A stretch of 64,000 nt of DNA from an uncultured virus (IMG/VR IMGVR_UViG_3300043101_000273) (lineage: Duplodnaviria > Heunggongvirae > Uroviricota > Caudoviricetes). A model generated the notes under the pieces. It did no database searches, had not been told where the DNA came from, and saw nothing but the letters and a program-made list of their open reading frames with translations. The translations under genes and the position numbers were made by a program. Shown piece after piece: positions 42,469 through 63,370 of this stretch. Numbering within the stretch: the first letter of the stretch is position 1; the number at the start of each line of letters is the position of its first letter. The stretch is taken from IMG/VR virus record IMGVR_UViG_3300043101_000273; one strand, given 5' to 3'.

Positions 42469-43869
42469 TTATAATCTATTTAATATATCTTTTACTAAAT
42501 CACTTCTAACACTTTCACCATCTTTTAACGTAATCTGACAAGCAAGAGGACTATCTTTCATTAATTCACTTGCCCAACTTAATCCATTATTCTTTTCATC
42601 AAGATATATATTATCTATCTGATTTATATCACCTAATATAATTATCTTTGTATCAATACCAATTCTTGTTAATATACCTTTCATTTGACTTACAGTACAA
42701 TTCTGTGCTTCGTCAATAATAATAAATTGTTTATTAATACTTCTACCTCTCATATAAGCAATAGCTTCTGCTGTAATTATATTCTGGTCAAATAAGTATT
42801 GTACTTTACCTTTTAATTCTTTCTCATTCTTATATCTTTCTTTTTCATTACTATCTACTAAAGCTTCTAAGTTATCCATAAAACCTCTTAAAAATGGATT
42901 TATCTTTTCTTCTTCTGTACCAGGTAAATAACCTATATCTTTACCCAAACTTTCTACTTCTCTTGTGATTAATATTCTTCTATAATCAGTATATCCATTA
43001 AAAGTCTGTTCTAATCCACAAGCTAATGTAATAAAGTCTTTACCTGTACCACTACCACCTTGAAGTATAACCAATGGTATATCTTCTGCACTTCTCATCA
43101 TTGCATCAATAGCAAATTTCTGACCTATATTCTTACCTGTTATACCATATGGATGATATTCATTTAATATAAATTCTATTTCAGTACAATCTTTTGTTAT
43201 TATTCCCATTAATGTAGAATTACTATCTTCTATTTTATGTATAAGCAAATATTCATTAGGATGAAATTCTCTGCTACTTAATTCACCTAATTCATTATAT
43301 ATATTATCTATTTCATCAATCTTAATTTTATTACCATTACTAAAAGCTTGACTTATATAAATTTCTGATATATAAATTTCCGCTCTACCTTTATATTCAT
43401 TGTCAACTTGTGTATTCTCATAATCTTCTGCTGTAATACCCATTATATCAGCTTTGATTTTTACATTTATATCTTTACTTATAATTATTACATTTTCTCC
43501 TGCTTCTTTTAAGAATTTGGCTACTTGAATAATCCTATTATCACTCTTAGATTTTTCCCAACTTTCGGGTAAATTCATATTATAATGATTGTTTTCAATT
43601 TTTAATATACCATAACTATCATCAATTTCATTTATACGAATACCGTCAATCAATGTCGTATTTTCTAATTTACCTTTTTCTCTTAATTTATTTATTTCTC
43701 TACTTACAGCTCTTGCATTATTATTGATATCTTTCTTGCCTTTCTTAAAATTATCAATTTCTTCAATAACTGCTTCTGTAAGTATAACTATATTATCTTC
43801 AAATTTATAAATACTTTGTGGGTCATCTAATAAGATGTTTGTATCTAATACATAATATTTTTTATTCAT
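42469..43869 (-). CDS. phoH: PIN domain plus PhoH-family ATPase (PhoH2/YlaK type)
   Basis: VLDTN PIN motif; GGSGTGKD Walker A; GYLPG, MRGRS, IIDEAQN, GDINQID. Confidence 0.93.
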   Translation of the reverse strand: MNKKYYVLDTNILLDDPQSIYKFEDNIVILTEAVIEEIDNFKKGKKDINNNARAVSREINKLREKGKLENTTLIDGIRINEIDDSYGILKIENNHYNMNLPESWEKSKSDNRIIQVAKFLKEAGENVIIISKDINVKIKADIMGITAEDYENTQVDNEYKGRAEIYISEIYISQAFSNGNKIKIDEIDNIYNELGELSSREFHPNEYLLIHKIEDSNSTLMGIITKDCTEIEFILNEYHPYGITGKNIGQKFAIDAMMRSAEDIPLVILQGGSGTGKDFITLACGLEQTFNGYTDYRRILITREVESLGKDIGYLPGTEEEKINPFLRGFMDNLEALVDSNEKERYKNEKELKGKVQYLFDQNIITAEAIAYMRGRSINKQFIIIDEAQNCTVSQMKGILTRIGIDTKIIILGDINQIDNIYLDEKNNGLSWASELMKDSPLACQITLKDGESVRSDLVKDILNRL

Positions 43870-44016
43870 ATATACACCTCAGTCTTTATGTATTAAGCAA
43901 AAAATATTTTGCTTGTTATTATATAAATAAAAAATTGCGGTTTATAAAAAATAGAAAAATTGTTAGAATATAAAAAAATACTTGACAAAAAAGAAAAGAT
44001 ATAGTATAATATACTT

Positions 44017-44245
44017 AGTAAGAAAATAGTAAGAAAAATATAATATATTTAATAAGCATCTTTTATCTTAGGTAAAAACTAAGATATATTCAAGATGACT
44101 TCGGGCGATTTGCCGTCCGAAAGGTGAGGGTAGTTCGTTTCACATATCGCTCAATACTTGCGATAGAACTTTAAGACTTGCACCGCTTTGACGAAAGAAG
44201 CCAACCACTCGCCAGATTCAATATATAGTATGTAATACTTTTTAT
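44017..44245 (+). ncRNA. Unidentified structured ncRNA, copy 1
   Basis: Promoter 43982-44010; covarying helices versus copy 2; 37-nt identical core 44096-44132. Confidence 0.75.
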
Positions 44246-45180
44246 TTTTTAGTTTTTAAAGTTTTATCTAGTAATATAATTTATTAAAAGATAGGCAAAA
44301 AACATTTTATTTACTTATATTTTTGTGAGAATATAGTAAATAATAAATAAAAAATAATATTTGAAGATAACTTTTCAATGAGTTCCAGAGTTAGTATTTC
44401 AAATACTAACAAAAAATACTATTATGTATTGGACAGGTATTATTACTAATATACTGGGAAGCAAAAGAGATTTCAATGGAGAATGGTTAATTCATTAAAA
44501 GCATTGATACTACTATGCTAAAAGGCAAAAGTTAAAACATAGTTGTTTTATTTATAAACCTTTAATAATTATTATATTTTTCATATTACTTAATATTTTA
44601 AAAATGAAAAACTAAATATAAGATAATTTACTTCTAAAAAGAGCAAATATTCTGAATTTATATACAGTGCATATGAAAATATGTGTTGTATATTAAAACC
44701 TTATTAATTGTCTTGATTATTAGTTTTTTTAGAAAATAAATATATTAGTTTTTACTTCTATTTTTGTAGGTTAAAGATGATTTTTAAAACTAATAATTAT
44801 TATTTTCGTATTATAATTAAATATATTTCTTTTAAATATTAAACAATTTACTTCTATTTAATTTTTTAATTATAGACTATGATTAACTTTAATTGTTTAA
44901 ATTGTTAAAATTAATATATTAAGAATCCTGAACATTAGATATGATTTAGTTTACTTCTATTTTTTGATTACAGCAAATATTTCAAATTTATTTAACTAAA
45001 CCAATTACTAATGTTTTTTATTTTCAATAACTAAGATTATATTGTCTTAGTTATTTTTTTATTAGAAAAATTCCTAATAATTATTTATATTTAAACAAAA
45101 AACTTCTTGACAAATTATAAAATGTATGGTATAATATATGTAAATCAAATAATAAATTTCTTTCAAAGGAGAAGTTTTAT

Positions 45181-45522
45181 ATGGAATTTTCATTTTTTGG
45201 AGAAACAATTAAAAACGAATTGGATTCTGATAACGAATTCTATTGTAAGTATAAAAATATTATTATAACAGCAAAAAAAGAAGAATATAGTTATAGTTGT
45301 TATATAAAAATTAAGAATACAGACTTCGAAATCTTTTCATACGAAGATACAATACAAGAAGCCATTCAAGACACAATTGAAGAACTGGAAATAGAAATTC
45401 AAAATCTTATATATGATTTTAAAAAGACAATGAATATTTTATCTAATATTCCAAACTTAGAAGAAAAAGAAAACTTCTATTGTACTAGTTGTGGTTGTAA
45501 AATGCTATATAAATTACAATAA
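45181..45522 (+). CDS. Hypothetical protein, paralog of 45541, C-terminal CxxC
   Basis: Promoter and RBS; shared Y.C.I.IK.T...AIQ.T..ELE. Confidence 0.85.
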   Translation: MEFSFFGETIKNELDSDNEFYCKYKNIIITAKKEEYSYSCYIKIKNTDFEIFSYEDTIQEAIQDTIEELEIEIQNLIYDFKKTMNILSNIPNLEEKENFYCTSCGCKMLYKLQ

Positions 45523-45540
45523 AGAAGGAGATGTTTAATA

Positions 45541-45864
45541 ATGAGATTCGTTTTTTTTAAAAAGAATATTGATGTAAGAAATGATTTAAAGAAAAAACAC
45601 GAATTTTATTCCGAATATGATAATTTTATTGTCGAAGGAGAGTATGATGAACTCAAAGAAGTATACTATTGTAGTATTTCTATTAAAGACACTAATCTTT
45701 ATGTTTCTGAATGTGCTAAAACAATGAAAGATGCTATTCAAAACACTTTTAATGAATTAGAAGAACAACTTTGTTTTATAGCGGAAAAAACAAAAAGGAA
45801 TATAAAAATGTTATCTAACACTAGTGATTTGCCAACAAAGCTTAAACCATTAGAAAATGTATAA
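45541..45864 (+). CDS. Hypothetical protein, paralog of 45181
   Basis: AAGGAG RBS; paralogy. Confidence 0.85.
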   Translation: MRFVFFKKNIDVRNDLKKKHEFYSEYDNFIVEGEYDELKEVYYCSISIKDTNLYVSECAKTMKDAIQNTFNELEEQLCFIAEKTKRNIKMLSNTSDLPTKLKPLENV

Positions 45865-45987
45865 CATTATATTTTAAATATAGTGCCGAGAACTCCCCGA
45901 ACCTTTAGGTTCGTGGGATGAATCGGCATATAAAAACTCAGATTGTGTTGTAATAAGCTCAGATATTTCTATTATTCATAGGAGGTA

Positions 45988-46398
45988 ATGCTTATGGGTA
46001 ATTGGAAATCTGCAAGTCATAACAAATACTTATTACAATATCATCTTATATTTGTATGTAAATACAGAAAAAAATTGCTGATAAGTCAGTATGTTTCTGA
46101 TGATATAAAAAGATTATCAAGGGAGATATGCTATAAGCATAATGTTTCTATAAAGTATATGGAAGTAGACAAAGACCATATTCATTATATGATAGAGACC
46201 AAACCAAACATAAACCTATCAGATTTTGTTAGGACTATGAAAAGTTATACAACTTATCATATATGACAAAAATATTCGCCATATCTAAGTAATTATTTTT
46301 GGAAAGAACATACTTTTTGGACAGATGGATATTTTATATGTTCGGTAGGTAATGTTAGTGAAAAGACTCTCAAAGAGTATATAGAAAATCAAGGTTAG
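45988..46398 (+). pseudogene. tnpA: Y1 HUH transposase with in-frame TGA at 46264-46266
   Basis: YHLIFVCKYR and DHIH motifs; frame continues past TGA with FWTDGYF and the catalytic YIENQ to TAG 46398. Confidence 0.9.
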
Positions 46399-46409
46399 GA
46401 GGTGTAGTT

Positions 46410-47510
46410 ATGAATAAAGCAATCAAATATAGAATATATCCAACAGAAGAACAGAAAATCTTATTTGCTAAGACATTTGGTTGTTGTCGCAAGATATGGA
46501 ACTTAATGCTTGCCGATAAAATAGCTTACTATCAGGCAAACAAGCAAATGTTACAGACTACACCTGCTCAGTACAAGAAAGAATATACATACTTAAAGGA
46601 AGTAGATTCTTTGGCACTTGCAAATGTTCAAATGCACTTACAGACAGCCTACAAAAACTTCTTTACTAACCAAAAAACAGGTTTTCCAAAGTACAAGTCA
46701 GCCAAACACAGTAAGAAAACTTACACTACTAACAACAACAAGCAGAAAGGTACGATTGCATTGTATGATAAAGGCATAAAGTTACCTAAACTTGGTATAG
46801 TAAAGGCTAAGATACACAGAAAACCCGATATAGACTGGGTACTTAAATCTGCTACCATTTCACAAGGCAGTGACGGTAAGTATTATGTATCTGTTCTTTT
46901 TGAGTATAATATTGTGATTGCAAAATCAACAGATAATAAATGTATCGGCTTAGATTACAAATCAGATGGTCTTTATGCAGACAGTGAAGGTAATATTTGT
47001 GGCAGTCCTAAATATTACAGAAAATCACAAGATAAGCTTGCTAAAGCACAGAGAAAACTTAGACACAAAACCATAGGTAGCAATAATTATAAGAAACAGC
47101 AGAAAAACATAGCAAGGATATATACACATATATCAAGCCAAAGAAAAGACTTTCTACACAAAAAATCCACCGAGATAGCCAATCAGTATGACATAGTTTG
47201 TGTGGAAACCCTTGATATGAAGGCTATGGCTAATAAAGGATTTGGTAATGGTAAAGCCACATTAGATAATGGTAATGGTATGTTTCTTACTATGTTGGAT
47301 TATAAACTTACAGATAGAGGTAAACAGCTTGTAAAGGTAGATAAGTGGTATGCCTCTACCCAGATATGTTCAGGTTGTGGTAACAGACACCCTATGAAAT
47401 TATCAGATAGGATATATCATTGTGAGTGCTGCGGTCTTACAATAGATAGAGATTACAATTCAGCAATAAACATAAAAAACGAAGGACTTAGGCTTATAAG
47501 TATAGCCTAA
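46410..47510 (+). CDS. tnpB: RNA-guided endonuclease TnpB
   Basis: AIKYRIYPT N-terminus; RuvC GLD / VETL / DRDYNSAIN; CxxC..CxxC Zn finger; putative omega RNA ~47500-47649. Confidence 0.95.
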   Translation: MNKAIKYRIYPTEEQKILFAKTFGCCRKIWNLMLADKIAYYQANKQMLQTTPAQYKKEYTYLKEVDSLALANVQMHLQTAYKNFFTNQKTGFPKYKSAKHSKKTYTTNNNKQKGTIALYDKGIKLPKLGIVKAKIHRKPDIDWVLKSATISQGSDGKYYVSVLFEYNIVIAKSTDNKCIGLDYKSDGLYADSEGNICGSPKYYRKSQDKLAKAQRKLRHKTIGSNNYKKQQKNIARIYTHISSQRKDFLHKKSTEIANQYDIVCVETLDMKAMANKGFGNGKATLDNGNGMFLTMLDYKLTDRGKQLVKVDKWYASTQICSGCGNRHPMKLSDRIYHCECCGLTIDRDYNSAINIKNEGLRLISIA

Positions 47511-47696
47511 GATACATAAACAGTAGGTTAGGAACTAGCCAAACTTATACGCTTGTGGACTTAATGGGAAAACTGCCCTTATGGGTGTGATAATAACCGT
47601 TGAGGTTGAAACAAGAAGCTCCGAGGTTTTAGCCTCGTGAGCAGTTCACCATAATATAACGTTTTTATATATAAAAATTTATAAGGAGAAATTATT

Positions 47697-48164
47697 ATGT
47701 ATACTATTATTCATCCAGTAATAAAATTTTCAAATAAAGTAAATACTCTTATAGAAATATTAAATATTTCTCAACGAGAACTTAATTCTTTATTATTAAA
47801 ATATAATTCTTTTTTATTGGATGAAATCTTTTTTAATAAAGAATGTAATAGAGATATTAAAAAGGAATTTTTTATTTTAAGAAAGAAAGGTTTTCATATA
47901 AACACAATTAATTTAAAAGATACTTTTTACTTGACTTTTACAGCTTCTGATAAAAAAGTTTATACATTATCACAATTAGTGTTATGCGACTTAATAAGTG
48001 TGGATTTGTATAAGTCAATTATTGCATCTATTCATAAGAATTTTTCAGATAAATATAAAGTTACTGAAACAATTATTTGCTTTGAAAAATACGAACAAGT
48101 TAATGATTTTGTACGATACTTAAATAAAACATATAATACTAAATTTTATATAACGAATGCTTAA
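47697..48164 (+). CDS. Hypothetical protein, distantly family B-like
   Basis: AAGGAG RBS; weak similarity to 37455 and 37968. Confidence 0.75.
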   Translation: MYTIIHPVIKFSNKVNTLIEILNISQRELNSLLLKYNSFLLDEIFFNKECNRDIKKEFFILRKKGFHINTINLKDTFYLTFTASDKKVYTLSQLVLCDLISVDLYKSIIASIHKNFSDKYKVTETIICFEKYEQVNDFVRYLNKTYNTKFYITNA

Positions 48165-48242
48165 ACACATTTGCAAATCATATAAATATTTTTGGATATA
48201 TAAATACACATTTTTACAAATTAAGAAAGGTGGAAGATAACT

Positions 48243-50438
48243 ATGAATATAATGAATGAAGTTTTATTGCGTAGAAAAAATTCTTTTATTATTACAGAAA
48301 AAGAATTTGCTTATGATTCTTTTGTTGCTGCTAAGAATAAAGAAGATTTGCTTGATTTCTTAAATGAAGATAGTAAATTAAAAGACCTCAATCACAAAAA
48401 GTTTAATAGTCTTGAAGAATTTTACATTGCTTTCGTACCTGACTATCTTGGTAAAAAAGATATTATTAATGATTGTAATGGATATTTTAAAAAATTAGGT
48501 TATACATTAGGTTCTTCTTTTGATGATTTAGTTTTTTATAAATTAGACCATATCAGAGATACTCTTATGGAAGTTTATGATATTCTTAAATCTTTAAAAG
48601 GAGCTGATGTTAATTATTCTACATTAAACGATATATCAACTGATACTGAATCAGAAGATAGTTCAGAAGATAGTGTAGAATTAGTTAAATTAGAAAAGGC
48701 TACTTTTAATGATTATGCAAAAATTATCAAAAACCTTCTTAGTTCAAAGACTTCTTTATCTAATAAAGACTTAGAAGATATAAAGAATTCTATTTCTGTT
48801 AATAGTAATATTATTCTTTCTATTAAAGAAATTCCATTTAAAGAGAATCTTATTGCTGTTACTAAACTCCTTATGGAAAATGATTTATCTTTATACACTA
48901 CTAAGTGGTTTAATAATACAACCGACGTATTAAGACTTATTGTTGGTTTATCTGACGGTGATATTTCTTTAGTTACTCCGTGTCGTTTTAAGAACCTTAA
49001 AAATAGAGAAAAGAAATTTATCGTATCTTTATTAAACACTGTTATTAAAAATAATAACAATGCTTACGAAGATATGTATAAAAAGAAAAATCTTTGGATA
49101 ACCGCAGCATATAAATTAAATGTAGGTACTTTTAAACAGTATGATTATGCTCTTAAAGCTATTTCTATGCTTAGAAACGGTGAACATATTGATACATTTA
49201 TGGGTAAAGTTAATAATCTTATTAATACTAACCAAATTATTCCTGCTGTTGATTTGCTTAAAACAAGACCAGGAGAATTTGCAAGAAGATTAAATGAATT
49301 TATCAATAAACCTGACCTTACTGAAAAAGACCTTCATTATATCATGAACACTTATAAGAATATTGTAGATAAATTAAGTTCTACTGTTCTTATTTCTATT
49401 ATTACTTTCTTTAAGAATTATAATAAGGAAGAATTAAGAGTGTTTAATGTAAAAGCTAATTCAAGTAAATCCTATGCAGTCTTAAATACTTGTAATGATT
49501 TAAAGAGTAAGTTTATTGATTATATTATTCAAGTAAGCAATAATGCTCTTGTTAATCTTTATATGAAGAAAGATTATATGGGTTATATTTATTTAGGATT
49601 AGATTTTAAAGACTTTGCTATTCCTAACACATTAAGAACCAGTAATTCTACAAGTAGAATTGTTACAAGAGGTAGTAGAGAATCTTTTGATTATGATAAG
49701 TTAAGAACTTTTATTCATTGGACTAATACCGAAAAAGGTGCAAGAATAGATATTGATTTATCATGTGGTTTCTTTACTGAAAACTTAACTTGTGTTGAAT
49801 ATGTAGATTTTACTCATTTGGAATGTAATGGTGTAAAGCATTCAGGTGACATTACCGATGGTGGAGATTTTAATGGTAATGGAGCAGCTGAATTTATTGA
49901 TGTAGATATAGATGTTCTTAAAGAACATAATATAAAATATATCATACCACAAGTTTATGTATTTTCAAGTATACCTTTTAGTAAGTTGAACTGCACTTTT
50001 GGTTATACTAATGAATTTACAAAAAATATAAATCCTAAAAATGTATTCAATAAAATGGCTATAACAGCAAATGAAACAAATATTATACCATTTATTATGG
50101 ATATTGAAACTAAAGAAATTATCTATGTGGATGCTCCTATTACTCATTGTGATAATATGAAAAATAAAACTCAAATGGTTGAAACTCATTTAAATGATTT
50201 ACAGGCTATTTTATACAACTTTATTCATACAAAGAGAATGAGTATGTATGATTTAATTAAATACAATATTCAAGCAAGAGGTATTGAAACGGATGATATA
50301 TATAATGCTGATGTTGTCTTTACAAATAAGCAAATAGATTTTTCTGAACTTAACAAAGAAAGAGAAGAAAATAATAAACCTTTAATTAGAGTTATTTCTG
50401 CTTATGATATTGACGAAATTGTAGGAGATTTATTATAA
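48243..50438 (+). CDS. Large protein with C-terminal TerD-like domain
   Basis: TTDVLR, RPGEFARRL, RGSR, IDIDLS, HSGDITDG...GAAEFIDVD motifs. Confidence 0.75.
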   Translation: MNIMNEVLLRRKNSFIITEKEFAYDSFVAAKNKEDLLDFLNEDSKLKDLNHKKFNSLEEFYIAFVPDYLGKKDIINDCNGYFKKLGYTLGSSFDDLVFYKLDHIRDTLMEVYDILKSLKGADVNYSTLNDISTDTESEDSSEDSVELVKLEKATFNDYAKIIKNLLSSKTSLSNKDLEDIKNSISVNSNIILSIKEIPFKENLIAVTKLLMENDLSLYTTKWFNNTTDVLRLIVGLSDGDISLVTPCRFKNLKNREKKFIVSLLNTVIKNNNNAYEDMYKKKNLWITAAYKLNVGTFKQYDYALKAISMLRNGEHIDTFMGKVNNLINTNQIIPAVDLLKTRPGEFARRLNEFINKPDLTEKDLHYIMNTYKNIVDKLSSTVLISIITFFKNYNKEELRVFNVKANSSKSYAVLNTCNDLKSKFIDYIIQVSNNALVNLYMKKDYMGYIYLGLDFKDFAIPNTLRTSNSTSRIVTRGSRESFDYDKLRTFIHWTNTEKGARIDIDLSCGFFTENLTCVEYVDFTHLECNGVKHSGDITDGGDFNGNGAAEFIDVDIDVLKEHNIKYIIPQVYVFSSIPFSKLNCTFGYTNEFTKNINPKNVFNKMAITANETNIIPFIMDIETKEIIYVDAPITHCDNMKNKTQMVETHLNDLQAILYNFIHTKRMSMYDLIKYNIQARGIETDDIYNADVVFTNKQIDFSELNKEREENNKPLIRVISAYDIDEIVGDLL

Positions 50439-50552
50439 TAAGTATATAAAAAAGATGGCTACTTTTTAGTCATCTTTTTTTGTTAAAAATTCTTGACAAA
50501 ACATAAAAAAAGTAGTATAATATAACCAAATTAAAAATAGGAGGTAAATCAA

Positions 50553-51050
50553 ATGACAGTAGGAGAAAGAATCAAAATAAAACGTAAAGAACTAGGTATT
50601 ACACAAGGTAATTTAGCTCAAAAACTTGGGTATAAATCTCGCTCATCAATCAATAAAATTGAGTTAGGTCAACAACAAGTAAGTCAGCATACACTTATTT
50701 TAATTGCTCAAATCTTACAAACAACACCAGATTACTTACTTGGTTACACACAAGACAAAGACGTTACACACGCAGATTTTATAAGAAAGTTGAACAGTTA
50801 TGAAATAAATCGTATAGTAAATGTATTCAACAATGCAACCGAAGCGGATAAGGATAAGTTTTTTGATTTATTAAAAAATTTAATGGAGCAATCAAACGAT
50901 GATAAAGATGCTTTTTTTGAAATATCAAAGAGAGTATTAAGAGCAACTTGTGAGGATAAAAAAATTATCTTAGATATAGTAAAAATACCATTTTTTACTA
51001 ACAGAGAGAAAAAATTACAAAAAGAGGAAGAAGAACAACAACAGACATAA
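50553..51050 (+). CDS. XRE/Cro-CI family HTH transcriptional regulator
   Basis: GERIKIKRKELGITQ..LA..LGYKSRSSINKIELG...YLLG. Confidence 0.92.
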   Translation: MTVGERIKIKRKELGITQGNLAQKLGYKSRSSINKIELGQQQVSQHTLILIAQILQTTPDYLLGYTQDKDVTHADFIRKLNSYEINRIVNVFNNATEADKDKFFDLLKNLMEQSNDDKDAFFEISKRVLRATCEDKKIILDIVKIPFFTNREKKLQKEEEEQQQT

Positions 51051-51184
51051 TAAAAACTAACAAAAAGGGATATTCCTACAACAATATTGGTTCTACAAGA
51101 TTAGAGGATAGCGTATCAACCTCTAATGAAGTTAATTTAGTACCACAAGTTGAAATAACAGAAGCTACTGGTGACATAGAAGAT

Positions 51185-51466
51185 TTGGAAGTTAGTGACA
51201 CTGATTTGAAATATGACGATAGAAGTCCTATTGTAACAGGTAGAATTACAAATACTACAAGTGAGGAAAAAGATTGTTATATTGAAGTAGTTTTCTATAA
51301 TTCAGAGGGTAAAGCAATTGCTGTTACCGAATCAAGTGTTGATAATATTCCTGTAAATGGTAAAAAGAGTTTTGAAAACTCAGGATATTTCATAGAGAAT
51401 AATATAAAATCTACTGATATTACTGATTATAAAGTTTTCGCTAGAATAACTAATTATTTTTATTAA
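51185..51466 (+). CDS. FxLYD-like beta-sandwich fragment (frame open from 51002, no clear start)
   Basis: VTGRITN...VVFYNSEGKAIA...IP..KKSFE. Confidence 0.6.
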   Translation: MEVSDTDLKYDDRSPIVTGRITNTTSEEKDCYIEVVFYNSEGKAIAVTESSVDNIPVNGKKSFENSGYFIENNIKSTDITDYKVFARITNYFY

Positions 51467-51519
51467 TATAAACGAGGGAGATATAATTCTCCCTCTCTTT
51501 TTTAGAAAGGAGAATATAT

Positions 51520-51922
51520 ATGAAAAAATTTGATATAGAAGATAAATTTCTTTATTATTTAGGAATATTTTCAATTGTAATGACAATTATTTATTTTATC
51601 TAAGTATTTCATCATAGAAACAAACTGCTTCTTGAAAAAAATTGTTAATATATATTGTCCTTTATGTGGAGGTACAAGAGCTACTATATTATTATTTCAA
51701 GGAGAGTTTTTAAAAAGCATCTATTATAACCCTATTGTAATTTATACAATATTATTAGGAAGTGTTTTTATGATTAAAAATACTATTGCCATATTGTTTG
51801 ATAAGATTAACGTTTTTAAAATCAACAATAACTATTTATATTTATTTATAGCAATACTAACTCTTAATTTTTTTATTAAGAATTATTTTGTAGTCTTTAA
51901 AAATATTTTCTTAATTGGATAA
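51520..51922 (+). pseudogene. DUF2752-like membrane protein, frameshifted near 51590
   Basis: RBS plus ATG 51520 stops at ~51603; CPLCGGTRA motif continues in another frame. Confidence 0.7.
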
Positions 51923-52149
51923 AAAATGTTTTTTAGTAATATAAAACCAATTATTATTTTTATATAATAAGTGAAGCTGTGTTTTGCAGTTTCCATAGTT
52001 TGCTGCAATGTTCTATTGCAGTTCCTCCTTAAAGTAGTGTGTAATTGTGGTATTTTAAAAGTTACAAAGAAAAGAGTGCTGTCCGATGGCACTCTTTTTT
52101 TGTTTTAAAAATACTTGATAAAAAAGAAAAAATATAGTATAATATACTT

Positions 52150-52375
52150 AATAAGAAAAATATAAAAATGATTTTAACAAGCACCCTTGTTTTTAGAATA
52201 TTCTAAAAATATGTTTCTGGTGACTTCGGGCGATTTGCCGTCCGAAAGGTGAGGGTAATTCATTTCACATACCATTCAACACTTGTGGTAGAATTTTAAG
52301 ACTACACCAAAAAATGACGAGTAGTAGCCCACCACTCACCAAATTCAATATATAGTATATAATACTTTTTTATTT
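52150..52375 (+). ncRNA. Unidentified structured ncRNA, copy 2
   Basis: Promoter 52115-52143; identical core 52221-52257; covariation versus copy 1. Confidence 0.75.
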
Positions 52376-52595
52376 TTTTAGTTTTTTTAAATTCTGTCGA
52401 TGTATTGTAATGTAAAAATGCTAAGAGATTGACAGAAAATTAAAAACGCTTTATTTGCCTATGTTTTTGTGAAAATATAGTAAATAATAAATAAGAAATA
52501 ATAATTGGAGGTAACTTTTCAATGAGTTCGACAAGATTAGTGTTTCAAATACTAACAAAATACACTATTGTATATTGAACGGGTATTAATACTAA

Positions 52596-52928
52596 TATAG
52601 TGGAAAAGCAAAACAAGTTGATATAATACCAGCGAATAAACAAATAACTGAATTTACTGTTACAGATACAGAATTAAAATATAAGAATAAAGTTCCTGTT
52701 GTTACAGGCAAAATAAATAATACTAATAATACAGAACAAAATGTTTGTTTAAAAGTCATATTCTATGATTTTGATAATGAAGCTATTGCTATTAGCGATA
52801 CAAATATTATTATTCCTGCAAATTGTAAAAAGACTTTTGAAATAAAAGGATATTATATAAAGGATAAAGTTGAAGAAGGAATTATAACTAATTATAAAAT
52901 ATCCGCTCAAACTAAATATTTACAATAA
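52596..52928 (+). pseudogene. Start-less FxLYD-like paralog of 51185
   Basis: Hand translation TDTELKY..PVVTGKINN..VIFYDFDNEAIA..IPANCKKTFE; in-frame stop upstream, no ATG. Confidence 0.7.
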
Positions 52929-53003
52929 TTATTGTATAAATAAAGAAAATCAAGCATATAATATAAATATCTTATTAAATCTTTTTGTTAAGGAGAAAAT
53001 TAT

Positions 53004-53426
53004 ATGTTTAGTATGAATGAAATTGAAACCATTACAAATGATTTTAAAAATTATTTAATAAACAATTATATTGAAAAAGAAAATGTAGAAATTATAGAAG
53101 AAAAAACTTCATTAGCAGAACTTATTGATACTTTAAAAACAGATAAAAATGTTAGTTTAGAATGGTGGAGCGAATATAAAAGAAAAATTAAATCTGGTGA
53201 TATTGTTTATATACCTAATATTAAAAAGTTTGGTATATTCATTTGTCCAGCAGTAAAAAAAGATAAGGTAAGAATTAGATTACTTAAAAATGAAGATAAA
53301 AATAGTGCATATACAACTGATTGGTTCTTTGATTATAATGAAATAAAGATAGTTAAGCATAATAATAAATTAACAAGAAGTTTTACTGAAACAGAAGATA
53401 ATTTTATTTATAAATATGCTCAATAA
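53004..53426 (+). CDS. Hypothetical protein, possible SH3/KOW-like C-terminus
   Basis: AAGGAG RBS; IKSGDIVYI motif. Confidence 0.75.
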   Translation: MFSMNEIETITNDFKNYLINNYIEKENVEIIEEKTSLAELIDTLKTDKNVSLEWWSEYKRKIKSGDIVYIPNIKKFGIFICPAVKKDKVRIRLLKNEDKNSAYTTDWFFDYNEIKIVKHNNKLTRSFTETEDNFIYKYAQ

Positions 53427-53475
53427 TTTTAAAAAAGATATTGACAAAGTTTAAAAAATATGGTATAATATATTT

Positions 53476-53675
53476 GTTCTTAAAAGAGAACGGTAGGAGA
53501 ATTTCAACTCCTCCCTTAAATATTGTCGTTAATGGAAAGGTATCTTTCCTTGGCAATAAAGCTTGTTTTGGAAGAAGTTACAGTGCTTCTTGCTTTTATA
53601 ACATTATGTTTATATTTAGTAAGCAGAGAAAAACTTTGTGTACAAACAAGGTATATATATTGTAAAGTTGCATTT
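53476..53675 (+). ncRNA. tracrRNA-like scaffold RNA, copy 1
   Basis: Promoter TTGACA 53441 / TATAAT 53464; loop AATTTCAA 53500-53507 complementary to repeat 3' end; anti-repeat 53651-53673 complementary to repeat 5' part. Confidence 0.8.
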
Positions 53676-53684
53676 AGAATACAA

Positions 53685-53869
53685 GTGCGAATCTTAAAAA
53701 GCAATATTATTTTTATATAATTAAAAAATTAGATTCGCACCTGAAATTTTGCACAAAATTCAATATTTTTTAATGGTAAATGATTTTTATAAAAAGTTAT
53801 TTACTTGCTAGTTGTTTATTATAACAAAGCAAAATTTAAAAATCGAATATTTTTTTGTGCAATATCGCA
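53685..53869 (+). promoter_or_regulatory. CRISPR leader 1 with two inverted repeats
   Basis: GTGCGAATCT 53685 / AGATTCGCAC 53731; TTGCACAAAA / TTTTGTGCAA; homologous to leader 2. Confidence 0.75.
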
Positions 53870-54087
53870 GTTGCAACTTATACACATATATGTATTGAAA
53901 TTGTAATGGTTCTGAACAAAATGAATCAGCAGCTATGTTGCAACTTATACACATATATATATTGAAATTATAAAAAAATTCTCTTCACCGTGTGTGGAAT
54001 TGTTGCAATTCATATATGTATATATGTTGGAATTATCTAAAAAATAAATGTTATGCAGGGAATGTTCCAACTCATATATATTGGAAT
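53870..54087 (+). CRISPR. CRISPR array 1: 4 repeats (GTTGCAACTTATACACATATATGTATTGAAAT, degenerating distally), 3 spacers of 35, 33, 30 nt
   Basis: Repeats at 53870, 53937, 54002 and 54064 (truncated). Confidence 0.88.
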
Positions 54088-54197
54088 TTAATATTGAAAA
54101 CACACTTGATAAAATTAAAATAAAATTTTTATTATTTCGTTTAATATTTCTCTTTATTTATATATATAATATATGAAAATAAAAAGGGAGGTAAAAA

Positions 54198-54416
54198 ATG
54201 ATGACAATAACTTTTAGTAATATTCAAACAGTCAAAGATTTTGTAAATACAACTAATAAATGCACAGGTGATATTGAAGTAAAATCAGATAGATATGTAG
54301 TAGACGGTAAGTCTATTATGGGACTGTTTTCTTTAGACTTTTCTTTACCAGTAGAGGTTATTACTCATAATCCAGATGATTTAAATACAATCAAAGATTT
54401 TATAAACACATTGTAA
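54198..54416 (+). CDS. HPr-family phosphocarrier-like protein (Ser46 motif kept, no His15)
   Basis: VDGKSIMGLFSL motif; GGAGG RBS; 72 aa. Confidence 0.85.
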   Translation: MMTITFSNIQTVKDFVNTTNKCTGDIEVKSDRYVVDGKSIMGLFSLDFSLPVEVITHNPDDLNTIKDFINTL

Positions 54417-54624
54417 TTTATTTAATTGATTATCCATTTTTGCCATTTTGTGATAATCCTCCTTGCAAATAATAGATTACAATTCAAAAAAGAGCTTAGT
54501 TTCGCCACTAAGTTCTTTTTTTATTGAAAAATTGCAGAAAATGTTGACAAATGATAAAAAATGTAGTATAATATGATTACAAAAAACACAAAATTATTTT
54601 AAATTATCAAAGGAGAAAATAAAA

Positions 54625-56301
54625 ATGGCTAAATCAGAAAAGAAATGCTTTGTAGTACAAATACCTTTGAACCTTGAAAAATTCCAAATTGATTTTTTAA
54701 ATAAGAAATTGGAAGATTGTAGAAAGGTATATAATACGGTTCTTAGTATAACATTAAAAAGATATAAAGAAATGCAAAAGACTAAGAAATATAAGTATAT
54801 AGAAAAAACTACTGAAAAATATTGGAAACCTATCAATGATTATAAAAATCAAATAGATGAGTTGAACAATGAAGTAGCTGATATAAACGAACTTTTAAAA
54901 AATAATAATTTGTCTAACGAAGAAATTATTGATTTAAATAATAAGAAGAAAGATATTGCAGCTCAGATAAAAACACTTATAGCAGAAAAGAAAAAATTAA
55001 ATGATGAATTTAAATTAATTAAACCTGAATTCAATAACATAAAAAACGGATTATTAAAAGAATATCATATTTCTAAATATGGGTTCGATAAAGATATTCG
55101 AAAAGTATATTCTCATTTTAACATACCATCTAAAACAGCTGAAAGTATTAGAGACGATATTTGGAGAGCTTATGATAAAAACTTATGGGGTAATGGAAAA
55201 AGATTTCATTTCAAGCGTTATAATACTGTTGATTCTATAAATGGCAGTTCTAATAATCAAACTGTTAAGTTAGACCTTGAAAAGAATTGTGTAACCTACA
55301 TGAAAAAAGATTATCCTATTAAGTTTCCTAAAAATAACAACTACATTATAGAAGCTTTAAATAATAACAAAATAATTAGATGTAGAATTGTTCGTAAGTC
55401 CATAAAGAAAAAAGATAGATTTTTTGTACAGGCAACATTAAATGGTACTCCACCTACTAATTACAATCGTCTTATGGGCAACGGTAAAGTTGGTATTGAT
55501 ATTGGTACTCAGACTATTGCTGTCGTTGGAAAAAACGATATAAAGTTGGAAGAACTTGCCAAAGGAGTACAAGATATTCAAAATCAACTTAGAATAATTA
55601 ACAGAAAAATGGATAGAAGTAGAAGAGCTACTAATCCTGATAATTATAATGAAGATGGTACTATTGTTAAAGTAAAAAAAGGTGAAAAGCGTAATTGGCA
55701 TTATTCTAAAAACTATAAAAAATTAGCAGCAGAAAGAAAAGAACTTTTCAGGAAGCAAGTTGATTTAAGAAAACTTTCTCACGAAACACTTGCAAATGAA
55801 ATTATTGGAATGGGTGATGAGTTCTATATAGAAGATATGGAGTTTCAAGCATTACAGAAAAAAGCAAAAGAAACCACTAAAAACTCAAAAGGCAAGTTTA
55901 ATAGCAAAAAAAGGTTTGGCAAGTCTATTGCTAATAAAGCTCCTGCAATGGCTAAGTCTATTTTGAAAAGAAAACTTGGATATTACGGTAAAGAGCTTAT
56001 TGAAATAAAAACTAAAAAAGCTAAAGCAAGTCAATATAATCATGTGGATAATACTTATATTAAGGCTGAATTAAGCGTAAGAAGCAAAGATATTGGTGGT
56101 CATAAAATACAGCGTGATTTATATAGTGCTTTTCTTATTAGTAACATCAATCCTGACTTGGAAACATTTAATAGAGTTGGTTGTAATATTAAGTTTGATA
56201 ACTTTTGTAAAATGCATGATAAAAAAATAATCGAGCTTAAAAATGATGATTCAATTCATAATTTATCAAGTTTAGGTTTGAAAGATTTTTCTGAAAAATA
56301 A
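54625..56301 (+). CDS. CRISPR-associated TnpB-derived RuvC nuclease (compact Cas12-like effector), 558 aa
   Basis: RuvC-I GIDIG (D292), RuvC-II IEDM (E403), RuvC-III QRDLYSA (D498); TnpB-like N-terminus CRKVYN; no CxxC; own promoter 54544-54572. Confidence 0.88.
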   Translation: MAKSEKKCFVVQIPLNLEKFQIDFLNKKLEDCRKVYNTVLSITLKRYKEMQKTKKYKYIEKTTEKYWKPINDYKNQIDELNNEVADINELLKNNNLSNEEIIDLNNKKKDIAAQIKTLIAEKKKLNDEFKLIKPEFNNIKNGLLKEYHISKYGFDKDIRKVYSHFNIPSKTAESIRDDIWRAYDKNLWGNGKRFHFKRYNTVDSINGSSNNQTVKLDLEKNCVTYMKKDYPIKFPKNNNYIIEALNNNKIIRCRIVRKSIKKKDRFFVQATLNGTPPTNYNRLMGNGKVGIDIGTQTIAVVGKNDIKLEELAKGVQDIQNQLRIINRKMDRSRRATNPDNYNEDGTIVKVKKGEKRNWHYSKNYKKLAAERKELFRKQVDLRKLSHETLANEIIGMGDEFYIEDMEFQALQKKAKETTKNSKGKFNSKKRFGKSIANKAPAMAKSILKRKLGYYGKELIEIKTKKAKASQYNHVDNTYIKAELSVRSKDIGGHKIQRDLYSAFLISNINPDLETFNRVGCNIKFDNFCKMHDKKIIELKNDDSIHNLSSLGLKDFSEK

Positions 56302-56346
56302 TTAAAAACCATTGACAAAGTTTAAAAAATATGGTATAATATAATT

Positions 56347-56546
56347 GTTCTTAAAAAAAGAATAGTAGGAGAATTTCAACTCCTTCTTTAAATGTTACCG
56401 CTAATGGATGGGTTACTGTCCTTGGTAATAAAGCTTGTTTGGAAAAAGTTTTAGTGCTATTTGCTTTTGTAACATTATGTTTATATTTAGTAGGTAGAGA
56501 AGAATTTTGTGTACAAACAAGGCATATATATAGTAAAGTTGTAATT
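56347..56546 (+). ncRNA. tracrRNA-like scaffold RNA, copy 2
   Basis: Promoter 56312-56340; loop AATTTCAA 56372-56379; anti-repeat 56522-56545; compensatory changes versus copy 1. Confidence 0.82.
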
Positions 56547-56556
56547 AAAAATATAA

Positions 56557-56741
56557 GTGCGAATCCCTAAAATCTAATACCGATTTTAGGCGTTTGAAAA
56601 TGGGGTTCGCACCTATAAAATTGTACAAAAGTTAATATTCATTTAACAACAAATAACTTTTGTAATTTGTTATTTATATATTATTTGTTTAATGCGAGTA
56701 AATAATAATTCGAAAATTGAATATTTTTGTGCAATTTTGCT
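56557..56741 (+). promoter_or_regulatory. CRISPR leader 2
   Basis: GTGCGAATCCC 56557 / GGGGTTCGCAC 56602; TTGTACAAAA / TTTTGTGCAA. Confidence 0.75.
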
Positions 56742-57100
56742 GTTGCAACTTATACATATGTATGTATTGGAATGTGTTTGGTAAAACAACATCAGTAGTA
56801 TTTGATGTTGCAACTTATACATATGTATGTATTGGAATTGATGCTGTAACTCACAAGGGTTGGATTGCTAGGTTGCAACTTATACATATGTATGTATTGG
56901 AATTAAGAAAAATGAGCCTTATGTTGTGGCAACAGCGTTGCAACTTATACATATGTATGTATTGGAATTGTATTGCTATTATTTGATTTCACTTGCATTT
57001 CAGTTGCAACTTATACATATATATGTATTGGAATTGTAACGGAAGTTAATGATTTATTCACAGAAGATGTTGCAACTTACATATGTATATGTATTGGAAT
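56742..57100 (+). CRISPR. CRISPR array 2: 6 repeats of 32 nt (GTTGCAACTTATACATATGTATGTATTGGAAT), 5 spacers of 33, 33, 33, 34, 34 nt
   Basis: Repeats at 56742, 56807, 56872, 56937 identical; 57003 and 57069 carry variants. Confidence 0.97.
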
Positions 57101-57334
57101 TTACCAACTAATCAACTTGGCGGTACAGGTAAGATTTTTAATTGGGAATTTGCAGCTACTTTTGCAAAAACTCACAATACCGTACTTGCAGGTGGTATAA
57201 ATAGTAAAAACATAATAAAAGCATACAAAACCGTACTTCCACAAGTGATTGATTTAAGTTCATCAGTTGAGAAAAACGGTTTTAAAAGTTATAACAAAAT
57301 AAAAGAATTAATACAAACAATTAGAAAGGAATGA
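57101..57334 (+). pseudogene. trpF: C-terminal fragment of phosphoribosylanthranilate isomerase
   Basis: GGTGKIFNW, LAGGINSKNI, IDLSSSVE.NGFKS..KI match TrpF motifs; N-terminal half absent. Confidence 0.85.
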
Positions 57335-57340
57335 TATTAA

Positions 57341-57664
57341 ATGGCTGAATTTGAAGATATTAATATAGATTTATCTAAACGTACTCCTGCCGAATGGTCG
57401 GATATCTACCATTTAAAACTTTATAATTCTCCACCACGTCAGCTTTGGACTGAATTTGAGTGGGCTTATAATCTTCCTAATTTGGATTATCAATATATCC
57501 TCATAAATGATTCTTCCGAAGAAGCAGAGGAAATGGAACTTAGAGCTTTTGATATTAAAAATCTTATTTTCCATCTTGCTGATAAAAGCGAAAAGGAAAT
57601 TCTTAAAACAAAATACATTGAAACTGAATGGATAAGGAAAAAACTTATTATAAACGATTTTTAA
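57341..57664 (+). CDS. Hypothetical protein
   Basis: AAAGGA RBS; closely follows the trpF fragment. Confidence 0.8.
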   Translation: MAEFEDINIDLSKRTPAEWSDIYHLKLYNSPPRQLWTEFEWAYNLPNLDYQYILINDSSEEAEEMELRAFDIKNLIFHLADKSEKEILKTKYIETEWIRKKLIINDF

Positions 57665-57680
57665 GATTGGAGATACCATA

Positions 57681-58262
57681 ATGAATAAAATATTGCACAC
57701 TAAAAATCCTATAAATGATACTATTGATGAAATTTTATTAAAAGAGTATTTAGATAAAGCTATATCAGCAACTTCTGAAAAGATAAGAAATTTACTTTAT
57801 GAGTATTCTTCTTCTCATAAAAATGAAGTTTACATAATAATAGATATCCTTTCTGATATAATCTCAAATAAGGATTATACTAAAGAAGCTCGTTCTTTAA
57901 ATAAAATAAAGAATATTATTAATATTGGTATTTTAGGAATGATAGATGATGAGTTTGTTAATGACTTATATAAATTAAAAAATATTAACCCTGATGGAAA
58001 TAAAATAAATTTGTTAGATTTTTGTACTCAACAAAATTTACTTATTCATTGTGCAAACTTTTCTCATCTTATAAAACAATTTGTTTATATATCACTTATT
58101 TCAAAAGACCCAAATACTATAAATAATATTATAACAAATGAAGAAATAACTATTCCTGACCAAGATGCTATGAATATTATTTGTTGTTTTTCACTTCTTT
58201 TTATTGAGAGTCTAAAAACTGATATCGTTTATATTTCTTATTTTTCTAATTTAGAAAAATGA
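57681..58262 (+). CDS. Hypothetical protein, paralog of 61214
   Basis: Shared TS.KI..LL, IISNK, NIICCF. Confidence 0.85.
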   Translation: MNKILHTKNPINDTIDEILLKEYLDKAISATSEKIRNLLYEYSSSHKNEVYIIIDILSDIISNKDYTKEARSLNKIKNIINIGILGMIDDEFVNDLYKLKNINPDGNKINLLDFCTQQNLLIHCANFSHLIKQFVYISLISKDPNTINNIITNEEITIPDQDAMNIICCFSLLFIESLKTDIVYISYFSNLEK

Positions 58263-58390
58263 ACCTTTTAGTCACGATTGTTTTATCGTGACTTTTTGTC
58301 GAAAAAACTCCATTATTTCTTGACAAATCATAAAAAATATGGTATAATATAAACATAAAAATAATATTTTTCCAAAAGGAGGTCTTTATT

Positions 58391-59536
58391 TTGCAAAGCA
58401 TTGATTTTATAAAAACTGATAGTCTTATATATAAGGAATATTTAAAAATAATAAAAGACACTTTTTCTACTTATGTTGTTTGTGATAAAGAAAAAGATGC
58501 AGTTAAAACTATGTGTGAATATATAGAAGATTTAATCAAAAAATCACCAATAAAGTATAAAAATAATTATTTTAAATCTTTTATTAATGAATATTTTAAA
58601 ACTATTAATATTGATAGTATGCAAGAATTTTATAATAATCATCAGGAGTTCTCTTTTTTTGAGTATAATACTTCTTATCATTATGGATATATTCTCCTTG
58701 CTTCTTGTTTGAATATTTCAATTTCTTCACATTTGATAAATCATCCAGAAGAAAATTATGTTTTAACAGAAGAAAGAACTTTAAACATTATTCTTAATTA
58801 TATTGATACTTATTTGACAGTACTTAATAGTAGCTTTATTTCTTCAAAACACGCTATGGATTCTATATCTAATAGAAATTTTCATGAATTTGAAGGTCTT
58901 GTTGTTTTAAAAGATGATTTAAATAAACTACAAGATAAGTATGATAAATTAAAAGCTTCTATTGATATTAAGGTTTCTGATGAAATAAAAAAACAGTCTA
59001 ATAGCATAGAACAAGAAAAAACTACTATGTTATCTGAACAGAAACATCTTAAAGAAAAAATTAAAGCTTTAGAAGAAAAGAATAATGAACTTCAAAAAAA
59101 TCTTAATAAGCAAATAAAAATAAACACTCATAATGAAAATTTGCTTAATAAAATGAAGTCCAATAATACTTCTTCTAAAAATATTACTACTAATATTCCT
59201 GAAAGCAATTCTACAATCTCAGAAGAACCACAAGATAGAAGTATTAATATTAATAGAAAAATACTTTTTGTAGGAGCTTCTCCTAGTATGCTTAGTAAAT
59301 TACAAAATATATATTCTAATGCACAAAATACTGATTTCAATTCTGCTAAGATAAATAAGAATTTTGTTAGTAAATTCGATTGTATTGTTTTCTTAAATGC
59401 AAAGCCTACTACAAATCCTTATAATGCTTATGCAAAGATTAAAACCATTGCTGATAAATGTAAAATTAAATATATCAATTGTAAAAATAATAATATAGAC
59501 TTAATTGTAGATAATATTGAAAATACTTTTACTTGA
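58391..59536 (+). CDS. Coiled-coil protein with C-terminal DUF2325-like domain
   Basis: ILFVG...IVFL...KIK..ADK.KIKYI.C; paralog of 59555. Confidence 0.75.
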   Translation: MQSIDFIKTDSLIYKEYLKIIKDTFSTYVVCDKEKDAVKTMCEYIEDLIKKSPIKYKNNYFKSFINEYFKTINIDSMQEFYNNHQEFSFFEYNTSYHYGYILLASCLNISISSHLINHPEENYVLTEERTLNIILNYIDTYLTVLNSSFISSKHAMDSISNRNFHEFEGLVVLKDDLNKLQDKYDKLKASIDIKVSDEIKKQSNSIEQEKTTMLSEQKHLKEKIKALEEKNNELQKNLNKQIKINTHNENLLNKMKSNNTSSKNITTNIPESNSTISEEPQDRSININRKILFVGASPSMLSKLQNIYSNAQNTDFNSAKINKNFVSKFDCIVFLNAKPTTNPYNAYAKIKTIADKCKIKYINCKNNNIDLIVDNIENTFT

Positions 59537-59554
59537 TAATTGGAGGTACACACT

Positions 59555-61210: not shown

Positions 61211-61213
61211 CAA

Positions 61214-61867
61214 ATGAAAGGAATATTTATTATGACTAAAAAAATAAAGTTACCATTAAATAATTCAACCAAAGAAGATACAAAAGAAATAAATTCTAAT
61301 CAACTGATTAGCACGGATGAATTATCTGAATATATACAAAATGTTCAATTGACAACTAGTAACAAAATTAAAGATTTACTTGTTGAAAACTTTTCATTAA
61401 AAAGTGAAGATGTAGTTTCTATGATTATAGAAATCATATCAAATATAATCTCAAACAAAAATTGCGAAGAAGATATGAACGATTATGTGTTTTCTCTTAA
61501 GGGAGCTATTAACATTAGTATCTCAGAAATGTTAAGTGATGACTTTATTCATAATTTACACGAAATCTTTAATGTAAATCCTAATAAACCATTGAATATA
61601 GATTTGTTACGTTTATATTCAGATGCAAGTTTGATTGCAGCGTGTGAATTTTTAGTTGATACAATTTCTCATTTTGTTTATACAACATTTTTAACCCAAA
61701 ATAATTTAACAAGTGCTGATTGGGTAAAAAGTTCTAACTTTGATATCATTACAGAACAGCAATTATTAAATATAATCTGTTGTTTTGCTCATCATATTAT
61801 TTCAGATTTGACTTCTGGTTTTTATTATGCAAAAGAAATGTTAGCTTTAGAAGAAAAGTTAAAATAA
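61214..61867 (+). CDS. Hypothetical protein, paralog of 57681
   Basis: Paralogy; both followed by a GTCACGA...TCGTGAC hairpin. Confidence 0.85.
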   Translation: MKGIFIMTKKIKLPLNNSTKEDTKEINSNQLISTDELSEYIQNVQLTTSNKIKDLLVENFSLKSEDVVSMIIEIISNIISNKNCEEDMNDYVFSLKGAINISISEMLSDDFIHNLHEIFNVNPNKPLNIDLLRLYSDASLIAACEFLVDTISHFVYTTFLTQNNLTSADWVKSSNFDIITEQQLLNIICCFAHHIISDLTSGFYYAKEMLALEEKLK

Positions 61868-62052
61868 TATTCTTTGTCACGATTATTGTATGATTTTCGT
61901 GACAATTTTTTAAAATTTACTAATTCTGCAAGATTTAATTCGCAAAAATTCATTTTTATTTATTTTTCTCTATAGAAAAATATAAAAAATAGCCATTTTT
62001 TGAATTTTTTAAGATTGAATCTTGCATTTTTTAAAAACTAAGGAGGTTTATT

Positions 62053-63289: not shown

Positions 63290-63370
63290 AATATTTGTTA
63301 TATTCTAATAATAAAAAATAACCACTTATTAAAAGTGGCTTGATAAAAATAATATTAAAAATTTTTATAA

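Follow-up and report, generated by a model that had tools for sequence, protein, structure and literature searches.

Cas12f trans-activating CRISPR RNAs (tracrRNAs; CRISPR, short palindromic repeats that are clustered and regularly interspaced) have been well characterised (PMC10090079, PMC13186708). Cas12f1 works as a homodimer with one RNA of ~200 nt (PMC12255294), and the RhCas12f1 guide of Kong et al., fused into a single guide RNA, is active in cells (PMC10090079). A pseudoknot with the 3′ end of the repeat is characteristic of Cas12 tracrRNAs (10.1101/2025.01.20.633832). Type V-F and V-U systems that have compact arrays and lack adaptation genes occur in huge phages (PMC7162821), and the word tracrRNA does not occur in the main text of that paper. 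In this study, we analyzed a 64,000-nt stretch of DNA from an uncultured Caudoviricetes virus (IMG/VR record IMGVR_UViG_3300043101_000273), here called the window, in which an earlier note made from the letters alone had pointed to a duplicated structured RNA of ~200 nt at 43975-44466 (copy A) and 52110-52613 (copy B). We suggest, with a probability of roughly 0.9, that each copy is the tracrRNA gene of a phage-borne type V-F1 (Cas12f) CRISPR system and heads a tracrRNA-leader-array module. Since Cas12f tracrRNAs and the type V systems of huge phages are already in print, the element belongs to a known kind; the RNA is an addition to a tracrRNA family that has been described and used experimentally and is absent from Rfam, and is not a new class. 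Less ordinary, and moderately interesting, is that six diverged copies exist, every one coupled to an array of its own and none of them beside the effector gene, and that they come in two variants of loop and repeat end.

The count of six extends beyond the window. Positions 1-48164, read on the opposite strand, are identical to the initial 48,164 bases of a 379,029-bp IMG/VR record (G001; class provirus, completeness rating 100%). The remaining 48165-64000 lies outside the G001 cut, yet it carries the recurrent promoter motif of G001 and copy B. Because the promoter motif and the RNA element continue past 48164, the window and G001 were treated as one phage genome, and the composite used for counting (G001 plus 48165-64000) measures 394,865 bp. 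The G+C content (~24% in the window) is also the same beyond the boundary at 48164/48165, which for these reasons seems to result from trimming and not to mark a junction of phage and host. Two proteins of the phage genome are on record on a 502,690-bp contig, and the composite is therefore part of a genome. It holds five core copies in G001 and, with copy B, six in all (5 distinct sequences). The features of the RNA in the window are as follows.

43982..44010 (+), promoter of copy A, TTGACA-17-TATAAT, 12/12 consensus positions; transcription would start near 44017
44017..44250 (+), probable tracrRNA, copy A, ends approximate; core 44094-44220, 153 bits with the model R1 described below
44057..44097 (+), P1 of copy A, CATC 44057-44060 with GATG 44094-44097, enclosing an optional hairpin at 44065-44085
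44100..44121 (+), P2 hairpin of copy A, with loop AUUUGC at 44108-44113, the proposed pseudoknot partner of the repeat end GCAAA (first repeat:anti-repeat pairing, R:AR-1)
44123..44213 (+), P3 long-range helix of copy A, 44123-44131 with 44204-44213
44132-44136/44166-44170 (+), P4 of copy A, inside P3
44145-44150/44160-44165 (+), P5 of copy A, inside P3
44185-44201 (+), variable hairpin of copy A, inside P3
52115..52143 (+), promoter of copy B, TTGATA-17-TATAAT, 11/12 consensus positions
52150..52380 (+), probable tracrRNA, copy B, ends approximate; core 52219-52347, R1 136.8 bits
52225-52246 and 52248-52256 with 52331-52340 (+), P2 (loop 52233-52238) and P3 of copy B

The homology, the promoter before each copy and the 37 identical nt in a GC-rich core, all of which had been read from the letters, held up on alignment: mean column identity between 43940-44520 and 52080-52660 is 85%, and BLAST gives 78% over 517 nt. 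R1, a covariance model built from the six phage copies only, recovers precisely the six and gives no further strong match in the 443 kb searched. When the four core helices were examined across the six copies, 94.5% of the cells were standard pairs, compared with 41-46% when the partners were slid. Six pairs are changed on both sides, a number reached by 6/500 shuffles, and the covariation score was reached by none of the 500; copy A also folds better than its own shuffles (z = −3.8; 0/200 as good). The compensatory pairs named in the earlier note proved to be real without exception. They comprise TATCGC/GCGATA versus TACCAT/GTGGTA in P5, GGTGAG with CTCGCC or CTCACC in P3, and CATC/GATG in copy A versus CACC/GGTG in the other five in P1, whose pairs lie outside the core alignment yet covary and whose inner hairpin is absent from two sister copies. 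The conserved core, shown by covariation, is the P2 hairpin together with the P3 long-range helix. The statement that no known family could be assigned also stands as far as Rfam is concerned: the only match at gathering score in the window is a tRNA at 19894-19965, none falls within the element, and at E values up to 10 the region 43700-53000 gave four weak matches (E 6.6-8.4), none of them credible. The RNA could not be assigned from Rfam-type knowledge because the Cas12f tracrRNA family is absent from Rfam.

It had also been noted correctly that no intact gene follows either copy. The reason, which was missed, is that a CRISPR leader and one or more repeats follow instead.

44251..44436 (+), CRISPR leader A; the leader is conserved in 5/6 copies
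44310-44337 (+), promoter-like site in leader A, 9/12 consensus positions
44437..44530 (+), mini-array A: repeat 44437-44466, spacer 44467-44500, degenerate repeat 44501-44530
52381..52582 (+), leader B
52583..52613 (+), solitary repeat B, 31 nt; no second repeat was found behind it

In five of the six copies, repeats of 30/31 nt stand at a fixed distance downstream on the same strand, with spacers of 34-37 nt across the composite; the numbers of repeats are 9, 9, 4, 2 (copy A), 1 (copy B), and 0. At sister copy L003, the same conserved 490 nt lead into nine 30-nt repeats with spacers of 34-36 nt. The long-array sister copies hold 3 to 8 spacers, copy A holds one, and copy B has its single repeat, while sister copy L005 is an RNA with neither an array nor a same-strand gene. 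The duplication ends, at 44466 and 52613, with the final base of the first repeat; the homology must stop there, as the spacers are different. Around the modules are ordinary large-phage genes (gyrase, methyltransferases, DnaB, exonuclease, thymidylate synthase), with no cas gene among them.

A Cas12f effector is nevertheless encoded by the phage. In a PADLOC scan of the 142 open reading frames (ORFs) of G001 with at least 220 aa, the 456-aa ORF at G001 54309-55679 was identified as Cas12f at full length (3e-116). Its closest solved structures are 8HR5 (1.7e-96) and 9NZP (6.5e-85), and the alignment with 8HR5 takes in residues 76-434 and with them the C-terminal nuclease and zinc-ribbon part. 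9NZP is RhCas12f (PMC13186708), and 8HR5 appears from matching residues to be CnCas12f1. The gene lies ~50 kb from copy A, ~6 kb beyond the left end of the window, and neither an array nor a structured RNA was found beside it. No Cas1, Cas2, Cas4, Cas6, Cas9, or type I genes were found among the same 142 ORFs. Because an orphan effector and six orphan modules share one genome, and because of the family membership shown below, we consider this protein to be the likely partner of the tracrRNA copies. The two RuvC proteins of the window, which had been put forward as binding partners, are probably the wrong candidates: one is a TnpB with no R1 match at its 3′ end, and the other, a 558-aa ORF, has an RNA region and an array of its own. 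We also considered a type I-B system, which would exclude a tracrRNA, since the 30-nt repeats recall those of clostridial type I-B; this was rejected given the lack of type I genes among the 142 ORFs and the fit of the repeat to the Cas12f1 family.

The family membership comes from bacterial loci that carry orthologs of the 456-aa protein. One such ortholog, with 46% identity, was the single match among 399 scored genomes of one class. In the 15 kb around it, the best R1 match (locus L077, 6852-6948, − strand; 20 bits, E 0.0014) lies directly between the cas12f stop and a CRISPR array, on the gene strand, and shows compensatory changes in P2 and P3 as well as the same GAUUUA loop. This stretch and the adjoining 30-nt repeat are letter for letter the tracrRNA and direct repeat of RhCas12f1 (PMC10090079 Supplementary Data 1, row 27), and the 3′ halves of the Rh and phage repeats are common. 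A second ortholog, with 40% identity (genome G689; 399 scored genomes, another phylum), has an R1 match of 20.4 bits (E 0.0008) directly after its cas12f stop codon, followed by an array with 36-nt repeats. The proposal of a novel trans-acting noncoding RNA was therefore right in kind but not in novelty, because R1 matches a published tracrRNA. The earlier note had named a strong match to a known family as the observation that would count against it; the kinship with such a family comes through context and covariation and not through bit score (20 bits for Rh and up to 44 in metagenomic loci).

The Ruminiclostridium herbifermentans RhCas12f1 system (PMC10090079, PMC13186708), whose effector is 46% identical to the phage protein, shares with the phage a tracrRNA having P2 with a GAUUUA-type loop, a P3 helix with a GAGGG...CCACUC core, and an anti-repeat, in the phage a proposed one, directly before the array side. 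In both, the repeat has 30 nt and ends in ...TGGAAxGTAAAT, and the tracrRNA lies upstream of the array on the same strand. However, the insert inside P3 is 72 nt in the phage RNA and 41 nt in Rh, the phage RNA lacks the GC-rich hairpin that precedes the Rh anti-repeat, and its own proposed anti-repeat is U-rich with G-U pairs. Unlike the Rh RNA, it also has a strong promoter of its own and a 5′ extension of ~80 nt (P1), lies ~190 nt from the first repeat, and is not beside cas12f. CnCas12f1 from Clostridium novyi (PMC10090079 supplement row 37) is of the same effector clade as the phage protein (8HR5 E 1.7e-96); its 29-nt repeat ends in GAAATGTAAAT, and its tracrRNA, judged by eye, starts with the same type of hairpin as the phage RNA. 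Its gene, tracrRNA, and array are adjacent in a single locus, unlike those of the phage. The systems of huge phages (PMC7162821) resemble the present one in being class 2 type V with compact arrays and no Cas1, Cas2, or Cas4, and the present phage differs in that its tracrRNA occurs six times, every copy linked to an array of its own, at a distance from the effector gene. In a limited literature search, we found no description of dispersed multi-copy Cas12f tracrRNAs in phages.

The wider family was examined in 80 metagenomic Cas12f loci, which were retrieved with an alignment of 13 relatives. R1 gave 101 matches (E<=1) in 56 of these loci, with scores up to 44 bits, and 101/101 were on the gene strand. 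They lie no more than 400 nt downstream of the gene in 55 cases, no more than 800 nt upstream in 39, and farther away in 7; a downstream match is present in 49 of the 77 loci whose downstream flank measures at least 300 nt. An array-like repeat (a 13-mer at 50-80-nt spacing, no more than 700 nt away) follows 69/101 matches, and its first copy usually begins 11-37 nt past the match. In an alignment of the 78 distinct matches, P2 and P3 were 93.6% paired, compared with 30-50% when slid, and 12 pairs carried double changes, although the alignment was fitted to the R1 model, which favours the structure. Several of the loci have two or three RNA-array modules around one gene (e.g., L083, 1964-2420 and 3893-4080), so that one tracrRNA per array is common in the clade and not peculiar to the phage.

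Both in the phage and in the metagenomic family, the P2 loop complements the final bases of the repeat next to it (R:AR-1). Within the phage, the loop ATTTGC goes with the repeat end GCAAAA in copies A and B, versus ATTTAC with GTAAAT in the three longer-array copies. The metagenomic pairs of loop and repeat end include ATTTTG/CAAAA, ATTTTA/TAAAA, ATTTCG/CGAAA, ATTTGA/TCAAA, ATTCGA/TCGAA, and ACTTTG/CAAAG. Over 55 distinct loop-repeat pairs, the mean cognate complement was 4.05 nt, against 2.96 ± 0.14 nt with shuffled partners, and 0/500 shuffles were as high. Covariation of loop and repeat end is thus shown, and a pseudoknot is the pairing that we infer from it. A second contact would be made by a short anti-repeat behind the core.

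44238..44244 (+), proposed anti-repeat of copy A, CUUUUUA (R:AR-2), against UGGGAAG of the repeat; a U run follows
52365..52372 (+), proposed anti-repeat of copy B, CUUUUUUA, with one U more than in the other copies

As read from the sequence, the phage CUUUUUA would form 7 bp with UGGAAAG, including 2 G-U pairs, at the position homologous to CAUUCCA/UGGAAUG of Rh. The repeat of copy B, UGGAAAAG, has one extra A, which matches the extra U of its anti-repeat. Of the U-rich end described for both copies, the U run itself is present, but it is not a canonical terminator: on the + strand, there were 0 terminator-like sites in either copy. Since CUUUUUA opposes the repeat at the Rh-homologous place, the U-rich end is probably part of the anti-repeat. 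A first idea of the anti-repeat, in which the 3′ tail ATTCAATAT...AATAC faced nt 1-23 of the repeat, was marginal against shuffles and was set aside for the Rh-homologous register, although both registers may contribute.

We propose that a phage promoter of the host sigma-70 type, as its match to the consensus suggests, would drive a structured RNA of ~200-250 nt. In copies A and B, the P2 loop AUUUGC would pair with the repeat end GCAAA as a pseudoknot, and the CUUUUUA after the core would, to judge from the homologous positions in RhCas12f1, pair with UGGRAAG of the repeat. The hybrid of tracrRNA and CRISPR RNA would then be bound by a dimer of the 456-aa Cas12f, and the complex would be expected to cut DNA matching the spacer, both by analogy with solved relatives.

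Several observations weigh against this assignment. The cas12f gene is not adjacent to any RNA-array module, and the R1 scores on both bacterial loci are modest (~20 bits), so that the argument there is one of position, strand, and covariation. The R:AR-2 duplex is weak, with 7-8 bp including 2-3 G-U pairs as read from the sequence, and an unbiased duplex search was marginal, preferring another register in 4/6 repeat queries (the observed energy was reached by 5, 86, 14, and 10 of 300 shuffles). Copies A and B have degenerate arrays (one spacer and none) and are perhaps decaying. No target outside the phage itself was found for any spacer; that of copy A matched only itself in IMG/VR. On the supporting side, four gut metatranscriptome runs from four studies gave contigs without differences to copy A, covering 44042-44192, 44076-44199, 44072-44294, and 44163-44436, the last of which bridges the RNA and the leader, but such RNA-library contigs neither prove transcription nor give the ends or the strand of an RNA. 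Many stretches of 43900-57200 had no contig cover in the four runs, and we draw no inference from this.

The state of the two arrays raises the alternative that copies A and B are functionless relics in decay and that only the long-array sister copies still work. In array A, one spacer is followed by a degenerate repeat, the only repeat of array B adjoins coding-like sequence that lacks a start codon, and the repeats of both differ from the GTAAAT-ending consensus of the long arrays. However, all helices are kept in A and B through compensatory changes, and near-consensus promoters are kept in both. The P2 loops fit the variant repeat ends of their own modules (ATTTGC with GCAAA), and copy B has the matching one-base insertions in anti-repeat and repeat, which, beside the kept helices and promoters, argues for continued joint selection. 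In addition, RNA-library contigs cover copy A, and a tracrRNA can work with arrays at other genomic sites as well. We therefore regard decay to relics as unlikely. Still less probable is that the RNA and the solitary repeats act as decoys or hijackers of a host Cas12f, as an RNA anti-CRISPR or a guide supply, and do not serve a phage nuclease. It is true that the modules are distant from every cas gene, that copy B has a solitary repeat, and that host Cas proteins have been suggested as possible helpers of huge phages possessing arrays without an effector (PMC7162821), but a full-length Cas12f of the matching clade is encoded by this phage itself, and a scan of bacterial species-representative genomes with the 3′ half of the repeat gave no array, only 12 single, chance-like hits in unrelated genomes. 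Finally, an orphan riboswitch or other cis-acting leader controlling a downstream gene or array transcription, as the earlier note had offered, would account for a structured RNA after a promoter, a U-rich tract, and a contig (44163-44436) running from the RNA into the leader, but it can practically be dismissed, as no copy is followed by an ORF, the L005 copy has neither array nor same-strand gene, no terminator-like site or Rfam riboswitch match was found, the family adjoins cas12f genes, and the loop covaries with the repeat ends.

If the copies are indeed tracrRNA genes, one might go further and picture a distributed Cas12f system, in which one nuclease gene is served by six diverged tracrRNA paralogues that co-evolve with their own arrays and use at least two pairing "dialects" (AUUUGC/GCAAA and AUUUAC/GUAAAU). 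These would be partly orthogonal guide modules under separate phage promoters, and in modules with a single repeat, copy B for example, the flanking phage sequence would serve as the guide, much as in an omega-RNA, possibly for self-regulation and not for defence. We offer this extension tentatively and think it rather doubtful.

The leaders contain two further, conserved hairpins. One, TTAGTATTTCAAATACTAA (44391-44409 in copy A), stands just before the first repeat and shows compensatory changes in one sister copy. The other, TTCTGTCGA...GACAGAA, follows the U run at 52390-52440 in copy B and is degenerate in copy A; a hairpin of the same type occurs in the R. herbifermentans locus L077 (~6770-6815) at the same relative place. 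Directly after solitary repeat B, 52613-53004 is a coding-like open frame without a start codon, by eye possibly a gene truncated by the module.

Two other RNA-guided nuclease genes of the TnpB type lie in the window. An omega-RNA overlaps the 3′ end of tnpB, ends at the right end of the transposon, and carries the guide in the same molecule. The omega-RNAs of IS200/IS605 TnpB proteins are evolutionary relatives of Cas12f guide RNAs (PMC10097598). The IS200/IS605 TnpB at 46410-47510 adjoins tnpA and stands between copies A and B, but R1 had no match at the 3′ end of any TnpB gene in the 443 kb searched, which speaks against a TnpB omega-RNA. The 3′ end of tnpB is under separate RNA-library contigs (47429-47624). 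In this element (45895-47650), tnpA (45988-46266) ends at an in-frame TGA stop, with the read-through end at 46398, and tnpB is intact. A hairpin just upstream of tnpA resembles the left-end structure of such an element. It is overlapped by a weak R1 match at 45803-45922 (−), which was rejected as it has neither the GAUUU loop nor the GAGGG/CCACUC core.

The second gene, the 558-aa TnpB/Cas12-like ORF at 54625-56301 (PADLOC Cas12u4, 2.8e-11; NCBIfam guided_TnpB, 6.8e-17), has no match among PDB sequences and may be related to the phage "Cas12 hacker" proteins (10.1101/2025.01.20.633832). Relatives of ~486 aa number in the thousands in metagenomes. The gene is followed by a consensus promoter (56312-56345), then a structured region, and then an array of six 32-nt repeats (56742-57110), the repeat being unrelated to the tracrRNA-linked one. 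RNA-library contigs on 56368-56526 had the highest depths of the stretch, and one of them is flanked by adapter sequence. A link between the duplicated RNA and this gene was considered and rejected: the downstream region shares only a marginal leader-like stretch (score 42 versus a shuffle maximum of 36) and has no R1 match. Spacer 1 of the array (56774-56806) has a 30/30 match at composite 184585-184614. In the nine-repeat array of L003, the last spacer has a 32/32 match ~2 kb away in the same phage. Self-targeting, regulation, and duplication are all possible explanations of such self-matches.

A promoter-containing motif of ~50 nt recurs at dozens of sites across the phage and its relatives (G001-G006), among them 50486-50538, 53403-53471, 56290-56347, and 58320-58360 in the window, and the tracrRNA promoters are of the same type. 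At 53491-53902, there are RNA-library contigs from 3/4 runs, and only short ORFs (65-74 aa) occur there. BLAST of copy A and two sister arrays against GenBank phages gave no match, and protein look-ups in IMG/VR with the 558-aa ORF and the sliding clamp returned the same phage only. Scanning IMG/VR with core and repeat patterns gave mainly five or six near-identical phage records, with a few single candidate matches to the repeat pattern in other contigs.

An unassigned structured RNA thus receives a concrete assignment. Rfam lacks a model of the Cas12f tracrRNAs, and for that reason RNAs of this sort will go on being taken for novel ones. The P2 and P3 core together with the covariation of loop and repeat end can be used to find tracrRNAs and to match them with arrays in this Cas12f clade. 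The phage copies could supply natural tracrRNA variants for Cas12f engineering. One effector gene apart from six modules, in a phage of ~395 kb or larger and beside a second TnpB-derived nuclease with its own array, is a layout that bears on how phages organise compact RNA-guided nucleases.

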